Shown here piece by piece: positions 18,001-24,000 of a DNA stretch of 64,000 bases. The first letter of the stretch is position 1; every line of letters starts with the position of its first letter. Position numbers: made by a program. Source of the DNA: Escherichia coli (GTDB taxonomy: Bacteria > Pseudomonadota > Gammaproteobacteria > Enterobacterales > Enterobacteriaceae); NCBI RefSeq assembly GCF_009931435.1, contig NZ_CP043414.1. One strand, written 5' to 3'.

Positions 18001-21000
18001 ACCGATGCCACGTTTTGCTAAATCGGTTCAAGTTTTGGTCAATGCGATTCAAGGCTAGCTAAAGAGTGACACTTTATCGTTGTTTACCCCTTATACTTTT
18101 CGCTGATAACCCAGATACACAGGATAACAACCACTAATGTTAGATTTGTTTAAAGCAATAGGCCTGGGGCTGGTGGTGTTACTGCCGTTAGCTAACCCAT
18201 TAACAACTGTCGCGTTATTTCTTGGTCTGGCAGGCAACATGAACAGTGCCGAACGTAATCGTCAGTCGTTGATGGCCTCGGTGTACGTCTTTGCCATCAT
18301 GATGGTGGCGTATTACGCCGGGCAACTGGTGATGGATACATTTGGCATTTCGATTCCCGGTCTGCGAATTGCAGGCGGCTTAATCGTCGCGTTTATCGGT
18401 TTTCGGATGCTCTTTCCGCAACAGAAAGCGATTGATTCACCGGAAGCGAAAAGCAAGTCGGAAGAGCTGGAAGATGAACCCAGCGCCAATATTGCCTTTG
18501 TACCTCTGGCAATGCCTAGTACCGCCGGTCCGGGAACCATTGCGATGATTATTAGCTCGGCGTCCACTGTGCGTCAGAGTTCAACCTTCGCTGATTGGGT
18601 TCTGATGGTTGCGCCGCCGCTGATCTTTTTCCTGGTGGCGGTTATTTTGTGGGGAAGTCTACGCAGCTCTGGCGCAATTATGCGGCTGGTGGGCAAGGGG
18701 GGAATTGAAGCGATCTCCCGTCTGATGGGATTCCTGCTGGTATGTATGGGTGTGCAGTTTATTATTAACGGCATCCTGGAAATCATTAAAACGTATCATT
18801 AAAAAAGGCCCGAATGGGCCTTTCAACTATTGCGTCTGTTCTTCGAGTGTCACTGGCCAGCGGCGAAAAATGATGATTGACCATATTAACGCGGCAAAAG
18901 CAGGCACCGCGCCCACATAACCAATCATCGACATTGACCAGTGCAGACTGACCTGATTACCTACCAACGCGCCAGCGCCGATTCCAATATTAAATATTCC
19001 CGAGAATAGCGCCATCGCGACGTCGGTGGCATCTGGTGCCAGCGCCAGCACTTTAACCTGCATACCAAGCCCGATGATCATCATTGCGATCCCCCAGAAA
19101 ATACTCAGCACCCCGAGGTGTATTTCACTGTTCGCCGAAGGTAGCAGCAGTGCGAGGCACACCAGCAACAACGCAATCGCCGTACTCACCAACGCAGACG
19201 CATACTGATTACCCAGTTTACCGAAAATCACGCTGCCAATAATGCCCGCACCACCGAGTAATAACAGTAATGCCGTGGCAAAGTTGGCGCTGAATCCCGC
19301 AATGTTTTGCACAAAAGGCTCGATATAGCTGTATGCCGTGTAATGGGCGGTGACAACCACCACAGTTAACAAATAAATGCTCATTAATGCCGGGCGGCGG
19401 AACAATAGCGGAAGGCTTTTCAACGACCCTGAATGCTCGCTGGGGAGTAAGGGAAGTAACTTAATCAGGCACAGAAGGGTGATAAATGCCCCGATACCGA
19501 TCGCGAAGAAGGTCATACGCCAACCGAAATACTGCCCCACAATGCGCCCGAGAGGTAAACCTAATACCATCGCCAGAGCTGTACCGGTGGCAATTAAACT
19601 CAATGCCTGTGCTCGCTTTCCGGCCGGAGCCATACGGATCGCCAGAGACGCCGTAATCGACCAGAAAATCGCATGTGCAAAAGCCACACCAATGCGACTG
19701 ATCACCAGAACGGTAAAGCTCCACGACAAAAACGACAGTACGTGGCTGGCAATAAACACCACAAACAGGCAGATCAGTAATTTGCGGCGTTCAACCTGGC
19801 TTGTCATTAGCATAAAAGGCAATGACATTAGCGCCACTACCCATGCATAAATGGTTAACATGATACCGACTTGAGCGGTTTGCATATGGAAACTTTGTGC
19901 GATGTCAGAAAGCAGGCCAACAGGGACAAATTCGGTAGTATTGAAGATGAAAGCGGCGACTGCCAGCGTAACGACCCGTAGCCACGCCACTTTGCGGGAA
20001 ACAGTGTTTGTTGTCATAACAGATTATCGGGTGAGTTGCGAAAAGTAATGAAATGATCTTAAAACGGTTAATGATGTGAATACAATGCATTTGTGATCTA
20101 GATCGCATTTCCATCTCTCTGACGGTTGTTCTGTCACGCGTCAGAGAGTTGTTAACATCACATTTTAATGACGATCAGGAAGGTCTGGCGTTTTGGTGGC
20201 TGATGGTAAAGGTGGCCTCACAGGGGAACGAGGCCTATTGTCCAGTAGTTCTTCGTTACTAATTTTGGGCGGAATTTCATTTTTTACAAAAAGTTTTAAA
20301 ATCTTGCGTGCCATACGATGGATACTTTTATCTTCACTTAATAATGCCGGTATCAACACATCATTCAGGTCATTTTCATTAGGTTTCATAAAAATTTGAA
20401 AGTGCAATAACATATTTGTAAAAAATAAGAATAGACTCTGAAAGTGAGGTATTTCTTTGTTTGATAAAAGCGATAAAAAGCAGATACAAACTTCAGGTAG
20501 TACTTGTTTGTTAGAACCTAATGAATCCATGAGGTTTTGTAATAACTCCTCTTTTAATGGGTTATCCTTTATGTCGTAGATGGCGGTGATTAAGTTTGGG
20601 TTTTTATTCGCGAACCACCTGTGGACCTGCGGCTTATTCCATAGTCGGGGGAGTATGACAAAATTACCACGAGAGATAAAGTTCAGTACGAATAAATCAA
20701 ACTGACGTAAGTAATCTGCAGCGGTATGATGCTCAGGAGGAAGAGGTTCAATATGTGGAGTATGAGACCTTTTGATGGGGACGCCGGGGCTGATCATTGG
20801 AAATTGTTCAATAAAGTCATTAAGAAACAGAAAGAGCACACGCTCGACGCCGGTCTGAAAGGCCCGACCCATAGTGACAGGCTTTGGGTCGGGAGCACAA
20901 TAAATATTAATTTCCCCATCGTGGCGAAAATTATCTAAATAAATAGGGCTTAAATTTATTACTACCTGAAATTCAATGTTTTCTTTATGTCTTCCATTCT

Positions 21001-24000
21001 TAACAGGATAAGTGAGTTTAAATTGAACCTTTTCATTGTATAGCGTGTCGTTATCTCGGAAAGTTGTCCTCTGTATATAAGATAGGTTATCAAGATTATT
21101 GAATATCTTTTTGGTGTTTGAATTGATGTTTAAAGACGTACGCCACTCCTCATCACATATTATAATGCTGAGCGCATCAATAAAATCCTTCAAAACTTCT
21201 TTTACCTGAGGTGCAATATTGCGAACGGGAAAATCATCAGGAAGTGAGATGAAATTGCTGATGCTTACTGGCGTAACCATATTTGCCCCATATAGTCATA
21301 AGTCATCGGAACATCACTATATAGAGCATATGAGCTGCAAGAACTATCAAAAATAGCTCATTGGGAAGACTGTTTTGCTGAGTCAGGCACATCGAGCAGT
21401 TGAATAAACGCTTCAAGAGGACGTGTTTTCGCACCGCGGCGCCAGACCAGCCAGGTTGTTAACCAACGCCATTGCTCAGCCAACGGCCACGCTTCAACCT
21501 GGTGATGCCCCGGCATACTTTCCAGCATTGAGCGTGGGATAAGTGCAATGCCCGCACCCGCAACCACACAGGCTAACATACCGTGATACGACTCCATTTC
21601 ATGGATGGTCCCCGGCGCTGCACCGTCGGCATGAAACCAGCTTTCAAAGTGGCGACGATATGAACAATTGGCACGGAATGCATAAATGTTACAGCCATTA
21701 ACCTGACTGGCGCGGGTTACTGGTGCATGTCCTTGTGGCGTGACAATCATCAACTCCTCGCGGTACACCGGTATCCCGTCAATGGCAGTATGGTTAATGG
21801 GCCCATCAATAAACGCCGCATTCAGTTTTCCCTCCAGCACCCCTTCCAGCATAGTGCCGGAAGGGCCGGTGGAAAGTGAAAACTGAATTTTGGGATAACG
21901 ACGGTTAAATTCCGCCAGCGTGGGCGGAATGCGCACTGCAGCGGTGCTTTCCAGCGAACCAAGAGAAAATAAACCTTGCGGCTCATCGCCAGCGACAACG
22001 CTCCGCGCTTCATCCACTAACGCGAGAATTTGTTGGCTATAGCGTAAAAAGTTATGCCCGGCAGGCGAGAGACGTAAACGCTGATTCTCGCGAATAAACA
22101 GATCAACCCCCAGTTCTGTTTCCAGCTGGCGTAGACGGGTAGTGAGATTCGACGGGACGCGATGCACTTTTGCTGCAGCCTGGGTAATGCTGCCAGCTTC
22201 GGCAACCGCGTTGAACATCTCCAGTTGGGTCAGATCCATGGCATTCTCAATTCGTGAATAAGTGGCTTAATATTATTCATTTTCAAGCAAGAGTAAATCT
22301 GCGTATCTTTTTACCATAACCCATAAAGGAGATACCCCGATGACCATTACTCCGGCAACCCATGCAATTTCGATAAATCCTGCCACTGGTGAACAACTTT
22401 CTGTGCTGCCGTGGGCTGGCGCTGACGATATAGAAAACGCACTTCAGCTGGCGGCAGCAGGCTTTCGCGACTGGCGCGAGACAAATATAGATTATCGTGC
22501 TGAAAAACTGCGTGATATCGGTAAGGCTCTGCGCGCCCGTAGCGAAGAAATGGCGCAAATGATCACCCGTGAAATGGGCAAACCGATCAACCAGGCGCGT
22601 GCTGAAGTGGCGAAATCGGCGAATTTGTGTGACTGGTATGCAGAACATGGTCCGGCGATGCTGAAGGCGGAACCTACGCTGGTGGAAAATCAGCAGGCGG
22701 TTATTGAGTATCGACCGTTGGGGACGATTCTGGCGATTATGCCGTGGAATTTTCCGTTATGGCAGGTGATGCGTGGCGCGGTGCCCATCATTCTTGCAGG
22801 TAACGGTTACTTACTTAAGCATGCGCCGAATGTGATGGGCTGTGCACAGCTCATTGCTCAGGTGTTTAAAGATGCCGGTATCCCACAAGGCGTATATGGA
22901 TGGCTGAATGCCGACAATGACGGTGTGAGTCAGATGATTAAAGATTCGCGCATTGCTGCAGTCACGGTGACCGGAAGTGTTCGTGCGGGAGCGGCTATTG
23001 GCGCACAGGCTGGAGCGGCACTGAAAAAATGCGTACTGGAACTGGGCGGTTCGGATCCGTTTATTGTGCTTAACGATGCCGATCTGGAACTTGCGGTGAA
23101 AGCGGCGGTAGCCGGACGTTATCAGAATACCGGACAGGTTTGTGCGGCGGCAAAACGCTTTATCATCGAAGAGGGAATTGCTTCGGCATTTACTGAACGT
23201 TTTGTAGCAGCTGCGGCAGCCTTGAAAATGGGCGATCCACGTGATGAAGAGAACGATCTCGGACCCATGGCTCGCTTTGATTTGCGTGATGAGCTACATC
23301 ATCAGGTAGAAAAAACTCTGGCTCAAGGTGCACGTTTGTTACTGGGCGGGGAAAAGCTGGCTGGGGCAGGTAACTACTATCCGCCAACGGTTCTGTCGAA
23401 TGTCACACCAGAAATGACTGCGTTTCGGGAAGAGATGTTTGGCCCCGTTGCGGCAATCACTATTGCAAAGGATGCAGAACATGCGTTGGAACTGGCTAAT
23501 GATAGCGAGTTCGGCCTTTCAGCGACCATTTTCACCACCGACGAAACACAGGCCAGACAGATGGCGGCACGTCTGGAATGCGGTGGGGTGTTTATCAATG
23601 GTTACTGTGCCAGCGACGCGCGAGTCGCCTTTGGTGGCGTGAAGAAGAGTGGCTTTGGTCGTGAGCTTTCCCATTTCGGCTTACACGAATTCTGTAATAT
23701 CCAGACGGTGTGGAAAGACCGGATCTGACGCTACATATTCAGCTCTGATATACTCGCAGGTCTTTTCAGACCTGCGGTCCAGGAGTAGAAAGTGGCAGTC
23801 GCCATGGATAATGCAATTTTAGAAAACATCTTGCGGCAAGTGCGGCCGCTCATTGGTCAGGGTAAAGTCGCGGATTATATTCCGGCGCTGGCGACGGTTG
23901 ATGGTTCCCGGCTGGGCATTGCTATCTGTACCGTTGACGGACAGCTTTTTCAGGCCGGAGACGCACAAGAACGTTTTTCCATTCAGTCTATTTCCAAAGT

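Follow-up and report, generated by a model that had tools for sequence, protein, structure and literature searches.

Here we describe yneK, a gene of 371 codons within a 64,000-nucleotide stretch of Escherichia coli DNA (NCBI RefSeq assembly GCF_009931435.1, contig NZ_CP043414.1; the whole stretch is hereafter called the window), and show that it is a genuine protein-coding gene under clear purifying selection. Our data make it likely that yneK is a lineage-restricted orphan carried on an acquired AT-rich segment, silenced by H-NS and StpA, and encoding a constrained, dispensable protein. A preliminary description of the window had presented the gene as an AT-rich open reading frame (ORF) without a recognizable motif, apparently acquired horizontally long ago, probably silenced by H-NS and devoid of an established function. 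Three features come in addition to that description, that is, purifying selection, repeated loss and the presence in this window of a rare, deeply diverged allele.

Coding status and composition

The 371-amino-acid ORF lies on the minus strand at positions 20165-21280, as had been described, and runs from an ATG to the quoted C-terminal tail RPRSPVRPPLPSATKTPDLPDRH. The ATG at 21280 is the conserved start of the gene; some E. albertii annotations begin at an ATG further upstream, which in E. coli does not lie in the yneK frame. Residues 1-371 of the encoded protein aligned with positions 1-371 of the NCBIfam profile NF033404 ('putative protein YneK') at 793.9 bits. This profile is an equivalog with a curated cut-off of 40 bits, and it names YneK without functional information. 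The gene occupies the same position as yneK of strain K-12, between ptrR (formerly yneJ) and sotB (ydeA), with marB/A/R, marC and sotB on one side and ptrR, sad, glsB and yneG on the other.

The frame is very unlikely to be open by chance (P ~5e-11 for 371 codons at the base composition of yneK), and it was no longer open in any of 20,000 shuffles. Between the window allele and that of K-12, the nonsynonymous divergence (dN) was 0.083 and the synonymous divergence (dS) 0.59, giving a dN/dS ratio (omega) of 0.14 (bootstrap 95% confidence interval, CI, 0.09-0.19). Each of the 21 pairs of strains or species compared, E. albertii included, gave an omega between 0.10 and 0.21, and the value was still ~0.17 across the split between E. 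coli and E. albertii. The YneK proteins of these two species are 66% identical, and the 371-codon frame has been kept intact at 27% nucleotide divergence. Constraint is not uniform along the protein, with an omega of 0.06 at residues 1-215 and of 0.23 at residues 216-371. Because purifying selection predates the E. coli-E. albertii split, yneK cannot be regarded as junk.

The claim that yneK is AT-richer than both flanking genes was borne out. Its GC content is 0.379 (0.368 at third codon positions, GC3), compared with 0.508 for sotB (GC3 0.574) and 0.536 for ptrR (GC3 0.514). The GC content of the whole window is 0.476, and among windows of equal size in the 64 kb yneK ranks in the lowest 2.9%.

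A lineage-specific segment between ptrR and sotB

We aligned the ptrR-sotB junctions of E. fergusonii, Salmonella, B2 strains, K-12 and E. albertii, and found that yneK is part of a segment of ~1.27 kb specific to E. coli and E. albertii (Table 1). Homology to the outgroups stops ~10 codons ahead of the ptrR stop and resumes at AGAGAT..AATGCGATC..ATCACAAAT, ~50 nt past the yneK stop. Within these limits lie a new ptrR tail, the yneK gene preceded by a 77-bp spacer, and a stable hairpin 3' of the gene. By contrast, ptrR and sotB are direct neighbours in E. fergusonii (91-bp spacer) and in Salmonella enterica (115-bp spacer), and the order ptrR-yneK-sotB of E. albertii is syntenic with that of E. 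coli. The missing segment in the outgroups and its synteny in E. albertii agree with the old horizontal acquisition that had been proposed.

The tail of PtrR in the window is unlike those of E. fergusonii (TEKRD, then stop) and Salmonella (AQLASVD, then stop), and insertion of the segment seems to have rewritten the C-terminus of this regulator. The ptrR-yneK spacer contains a Shine-Dalgarno-like run of GGGG, 7-10 nt ahead of the ATG. The 3' hairpin has a folding energy of -20.8 kcal/mol (z -3.4) and no U-tract; across K-12, B2 strains and E. albertii its stem is invariant and its loop variable. At the same junction, Citrobacter sedlakii has an unrelated PhzF-family gene on the opposite strand (5867-6655 of the C. 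sedlakii sequence), which fills the slot between ptrR and sotB. Since this gene sits there, foreign DNA may have a tendency to insert repeatedly at the ptrR-sotB junction.

The synonymous divergence of the flanks from E. coli is 0.81 for E. albertii and 1.75 for E. fergusonii, which places E. fergusonii as the outgroup at this locus. As E. fergusonii falls outside E. coli plus E. albertii, the simplest history would be a single gain of the segment in the common ancestor of the latter two species.

Distribution and searches for homologues

The distribution of yneK, which had been suggested as a check, proved to be restricted to Escherichia and Shigella, the gene being absent from the E. fergusonii and Salmonella junction. 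Among 5.8 billion clustered proteins, a word-indexed search found 22 matches; every match with a named source came from Escherichia or Shigella, and those without a named source were YneK at an identity of at least 60%. An exhaustive phmmer search of 1.84 billion representatives returned 45 matches, again from Escherichia and Shigella only.

Several apparent relatives were discarded. Metagenomic matches at 47-59% identity looked like distant homologues, and the ones inspected turned out to be fragments of E. coli yneK with frameshifts or many errors. A match in a metagenome-assembled genome labelled 'Caldithrix sp. CR04bin15' (SMXE01000224.1) is almost certainly E. coli contamination; the yneK on this 31-kb contig is of the K-12 type, its product sharing 84% identity with the window protein and having the K-12 residue wherever the two alleles differ. 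The 'plasmid' matches were chromosomes misfiled in PLSDB. Matches to OspA (E ~2) and to a phrog (E=0.011) were low-complexity or short chance matches.

No relative was found among 50,697 phage genomes, IMG/VR and real plasmids, and there was no significant match in Pfam, PHROGs, PADLOC or a sequence-profile search of the PDB. The absence of a recognizable motif stands, given that the protein belongs to no Pfam family and that NF033404 does no more than name it. Neither structure prediction nor profile searches pointed to a housekeeping fold, and the distribution is not that of a conserved core gene.

Silencing by H-NS and StpA

In the K-12 RNA-seq data of Srinivasan et al. (2015), yneK (b1527) shows a log2 fold change of -5.65 (p=1.3e-67) in the wild type relative to a Δhns-stpA mutant (PMC4288151, supplementary file 3, sheet 'hs-wt', in which a negative value means lower in the wild type). 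In the same comparison ptrR has a value of -2.1, a ~4-fold derepression, and sotB is unchanged (PMC4288151). Derepression of the K-12 allele in Δhns-stpA is thus ~50-fold for yneK and does not extend beyond the insert and the adjacent upstream gene ptrR. The rpoS comparison barely shifts yneK, so this derepression is not RpoS-dependent (PMC4288151). The silencing suspected in the preliminary description is thereby supported for the K-12 allele, in the form of derepression. Compared with same-size windows, the segment is in the top 1.6% for A/T-tract content and in the top 4.3% for TpA steps. Direct binding of H-NS at yneK is probable for the K-12 allele, and silencing of the window-type allele may be expected by extension from K-12.

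Candidate regulatory signals were also sought in the segment. In vitro genomic SELEX (systematic evolution of ligands by exponential enrichment) peaks of the sigma-54 and sigma-H holoenzymes and of NtrC fall in the ptrR-yneK spacer of K-12, and a sigma-S peak falls just inside the gene (PMC8743547, PMC5493296). When the spacer was searched for sigma-54 -24/-12 elements, the best candidate carried 3 mismatches, a match of the quality expected by chance; nor was a canonical sigma-70 promoter found there. In a scan for sigma-70 promoters and terminators, candidates were no more frequent than in shuffled sequence, and there was no match to an Rfam family.

A rare, deeply diverged allele

The yneK of the window has only 85% DNA identity with that of K-12 and ~4,200 other genomes, and the proteins encoded by the window and K-12 alleles are 84% identical. 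Over the 45 kb that could be aligned with K-12, the median identity of the window is 97.2%, and the three lowest of the 89 alignable 500-nt bins are all in yneK. Of 5,426 complete genomes, 18 contained the 3' half of the window-type gene, and the exact window protein occurred on 287 contigs, all labelled Escherichia. Because the sotB and ptrR of the window are rare alleles too, the strain appears to belong to a deep or introgressed lineage.

The dS of yneK between window-type and K-12-type classes is 0.52-0.62, that is, 2.9-3.5 times the dS of the flanks and about half the distance between E. coli and E. albertii. For the window allele against the common allele, the excess over the flanks is ~3.3-fold. 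The same ratio is 0.9-1.8 among mainstream strains and 1.3-1.4 in comparisons with E. albertii, and the CIs do not overlap. Synonymous divergence is high along the whole gene, the fall in identity from 5' to 3' being due to dN. Since the 3' remnant of yneK found in B2 strains is of the window type, this allele class is old within E. coli. AT-richness was considered as a cause of the divergence and rejected, as the low-GC island at 2601-5100, where GC falls to 0.35, matches K-12 at 98-100% identity, unlike yneK.

On the ptrR side, excess divergence from K-12 does not end with the insert but continues for another ~400 bp, within the 3' half of ptrR (21300-21800, 88-94% identity). At the right edge of the insert the divergence stops abruptly, with identity back at 96.5% from ~20103. 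This asymmetry around the insert suggests a recombination breakpoint at its boundary. Three origins can be considered for the split between the two allele classes, namely an ancient polymorphism whose trace in the flanks recombination has erased, an allele introgressed from a cryptic clade, or balancing selection.

Recurrent loss

Although 5,410 complete E. coli genomes had some match to yneK, only a remnant was left in ~1,165. B2-type strains have lost ~1 kb from inside the gene, which leaves codon ~29 fused to the few codons at its end. We also found an internal stop in an O157 strain and another in the type strain of E. albertii, and the protein database contains many entries for a truncated form from Shigella sonnei.

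The literature on yneK consists of incidental mentions, in keeping with the lack of an established function noted before. The Keio mutant had no significant effect in a host-factor screen for CRISPR-associated transposons (CAST). The gene was weakly associated with adherence to bovine cells in a pan-genome study, in which the authors credited linkage to marB, and deletions across yneK-ydeA-marC arise as collateral changes in butanol-evolved strains. The gene is dispensable and has been lost repeatedly. Being confined to Escherichia, silenced ~50-fold by H-NS/StpA and repeatedly lost, it is not a housekeeping gene.

Regions of the YneK protein

YneK is a protein of ~43 kDa with an isoelectric point of 6.8 and is predicted to be soluble; neither a signal peptide nor a transmembrane segment was found (maximum Kyte-Doolittle score over 19 residues, 1.32). 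The AlphaFold2 models, built on a six-sequence alignment, had a mean predicted local distance difference test score (pLDDT) of 45 for the full-length protein and 41 for residues 1-235, so that the fold is not assignable. The check by structure prediction that had been proposed thus produced no housekeeping fold, but it did not yield the fold itself, and because of this failure (pLDDT 41-45) we assign neither a fold nor a molecular function to YneK.

Within these limits, residues 1-23 are disordered in the model, and residues 24-127 are predicted to form three helices followed by a four-stranded sheet (pLDDT 50-77). Residues 146-215 are the best-conserved stretch, 86% identical to E. albertii, and contain ERVLFLFLNDFIEQFPMI, HTPHIEPL, HH and ADYLRQFD. 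A helical C-terminal region is predicted at residues ~180-335, with pLDDT up to 74, for which an alpha-solenoid of the HEAT/ARM/TOG kind was considered; the two allele classes of E. coli share 67-75% identity over codons 216-348.

The proline-rich tail mentioned in the preliminary description corresponds to codons 349-371 and includes four PxxP motifs, one SP and one TP. Its pattern, RPRSPV.P..P...KTP.L..RH, is conserved. PRSPVR in the tail fits PxxPxR, with an arginine that is not kept in E. albertii (PRSPVS). The string RPRSPVRPPLP is reminiscent of class II SH3 ligands and of the PRP-rich cores found in proline-rich antimicrobial peptides. We propose, with low confidence, that YneK may be a partner-binding protein acting through its conserved proline-rich linear motif rather than by catalysis.

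Weighing the explanations

The reading that we favour can be put as follows. Once E. fergusonii had branched off, an AT-rich segment of ~1.27 kb would have been inserted between ptrR and sotB in the ancestor shared by E. coli and E. albertii, bringing A/T tracts of the kind that xenogeneic silencers bind. In K-12, H-NS and StpA keep yneK almost off, with the ~50-fold rise following the removal of both. The product would be a soluble cytoplasmic protein with a tightly constrained N-terminal alpha/beta part and His-rich central block, a faster-evolving helical C-terminal region and a conserved proline-rich end. It may act, we suggest tentatively, by binding a partner protein, and only where H-NS silencing is lifted.

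Several points weigh against this reading. The silencing evidence is derepression in a K-12 double mutant and not direct binding, and the segment shows no enrichment of the specific high-affinity motif of H-NS. Terminal repeats, a target duplication, an integrase, an insertion sequence (IS) and a tRNA site were looked for at the segment and not found; since neither a mobile-element signature nor a donor was found, we only infer horizontal transfer, from the absence in the outgroups and the foreign composition. The ORF could instead have been born de novo on inserted non-coding DNA. The flank dN from E. coli is nearly equal for E. fergusonii (0.085) and Salmonella (0.093), and the tree of the locus may therefore differ from the species tree. 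The E. fergusonii dN exceeds what the genome-wide relationship would lead one to expect, and the yneK region may have a separate history in that species. As for the protein, residues 146-215, its most conserved block, are the worst-predicted part of the model, and their conserved His, Glu and Asp could equally form a metal or catalytic site.

The divergence between alleles raises an alternative that we consider unlikely, namely that YneK is a conflict-type protein, targeted by or acting against a phage, a competitor or the host, with two alleles and a null forming a long-lived polymorphism. It would account for the excess of dS in yneK over its flanks between allele classes, higher than in the other comparisons, for the concentration of the three most divergent bins in this gene, for the age of the window-type class attested by the B2 remnant, for the widespread presence/absence polymorphism, and for a C-terminal region whose omega is ~4 times that of the N-terminal half. 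Omega, however, stays under 1 in all regions and all pairs, and positive selection left no signal. The rarity of the window-type allele (18/5,426) is unusual for balanced alleles, and the rare sotB and ptrR alleles indicate that a deep or introgressed lineage, with flanks homogenized by recombination to a greater extent than yneK, could explain the split. Nor is there a defence-island context, the neighbours being metabolic and mar genes, and yneK is a single gene without a partner. Matches to PADLOC gave no credible family, with 0 families for the window protein and one marginal match (E=0.005, 14.5 bits) for that of E. albertii. That the locus is an old three-state polymorphism, with two alleles and recurrent nulls kept by an antagonistic interaction with a phage, competitor or host in which the fast-evolving helical C-terminal region and the proline-rich tail would be chiefly involved, seems to us slightly more doubtful still; if true, this 'unknown y-gene' would be a conflict gene hidden under H-NS silencing.

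It is very improbable that yneK is a functionless relic, that is, foreign DNA on its way to being lost and tolerated only through H-NS silence. The independent losses (the B2 deletion, the O157 and E. albertii type-strain stops, and the truncated Shigella sonnei forms), the silence of the gene in wild-type K-12 and the lack of a reported phenotype would all fit such a relic, but the low dN/dS, above all that of residues 1-215, already disfavours it, as does the frame kept intact at the nucleotide divergence seen with E. albertii, and a neutral ORF would not have stayed open (P ~5e-11). Least probable of all, in our judgement, is a secreted, eukaryote-facing effector, a substrate of E. coli type III secretion system 2 (ETT2) or of another type III system, whose PxxP, SP and TP motifs would engage SH3 domains or kinases of the host. 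The conserved proline-rich tail with its four PxxP motifs would suit this role, as would AT-richness and H-NS silencing, which are typical of effector genes, and a predicted disordered N-terminus (residues 1-25) rich in Ser, Ile, Pro and Asn and without Lys or Glu. The distribution of yneK in non-B2 E. coli, Shigella and E. albertii may also resemble that of ETT2. Nevertheless, the N-terminal composition test has low specificity, no similarity to any PDB effector appeared even at E<=10, and purifying selection also operates in K-12-like strains without a working virulence type III secretion system.

Other features of the window

Between 46750 and 62590, ~16 kb of the window have no K-12 counterpart at the locus, where K-12 has a truncated ydeT usher. 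The eukaryote-like leucine-rich repeat (LRR) and ankyrin proteins located there beside an IS element may represent an effector islet. Other low-GC islands (below 0.42 in 1.1-kb windows) are found at 2601-5100, 11951-13500, 38301-40200, 55151-57400 and 58851-61300.

Table 1. Positions of yneK, its surrounding segment and other features in the window
Feature	Position	Strand	Remarks
yneK coding sequence	20165..21280	minus	ATG start, 371 codons; open frame and NF033404 match
YneK codons 24-215	20636..21211	minus	Predicted alpha/beta N-terminal subdomain and most conserved block
YneK codons 216-348	20237..20635	minus	Predicted alpha-helical; omega 0.21
YneK codons 349-371	20168..20236	minus	Predicted disordered proline-rich tail
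E. coli/E. albertii-specific segment, ~1.27 kb	~20113..21388	minus	Junction alignments; boundaries approximate
Last ~10 codons of ptrR (yneJ)	21358..21388	minus	At or within left edge of segment
ptrR-yneK spacer, 77 bp	21281..21357	minus	Conserved between E. coli and E. albertii
3' hairpin	20112..20151	minus	14 nt past yneK stop; CTCTCTGACG-N14-CGTCAGAGAG; right edge of segment
SIR2-like protein	46868-48220	minus	In 46750-62590 region
Helix-turn-helix transposase-like ORF			In 46750-62590 region
LRR protein	51692-52738	minus	
IS21 IstA/IstB	52754-54555	minus	
Ankyrin-repeat protein	56379-58343	plus	
Intact fimbrial subunit/chaperone/usher set	59428-63815		

Significance and comparison with known systems

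YneK is one of the remaining proteins without a known function in the best-studied bacterium. What is new here are the boundaries and timing of the insertion, the purifying selection with its gradient along the domains, the catalogue of losses and the rare diverged allele. These results provide handles for further work on the gene, namely an exact insert of ~1.27 kb, a constrained N-terminal half with a His-rich block, a proline-rich tail, and two alleles together with natural nulls. They also make yneK a clean case study of a single foreign gene domesticated under xenogeneic silencing.

The closest known counterpart is YneK of K-12 (b1527, UniProt P76150), which shares the locus ptrR-yneK-sotB, the length of 371 amino acids and the NF033404 equivalog; at 84% protein and 85% DNA identity to it, the window gene represents a rare second allele class. 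The enterobacterial ORFans of Daubin and Ochman were reportedly described in 2004 as short, AT-rich and fast-evolving, with a suspected phage origin. Like them, yneK is taxonomically restricted and AT-rich, has a dN/dS above that of its neighbours and lacks a detectable homologue. Unlike them, it is long (371 amino acids), has been kept through the divergence of E. coli and E. albertii, has an omega of 0.06 in its N-terminal half and has no phage relative.

A second class to which yneK can be compared is that of the H-NS-bound, anciently transferred core genes, in which Higashi et al. (2016) reported faster nonsynonymous evolution (PMC4720273). yneK resembles these silenced genes in its AT-richness, its conserved position and its derepression in Δhns-stpA (PMC4720273, PMC4288151), and its nonsynonymous evolution is faster than that of its unbound neighbours, as in the class (PMC4720273). 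It differs from the general class in the dS split between its alleles, which an effect of H-NS on evolutionary rate does not explain. We conclude that yneK is not a new kind of system; it is an already annotated, uncharacterized y-gene of a known class, the H-NS/StpA-silenced ORFans.

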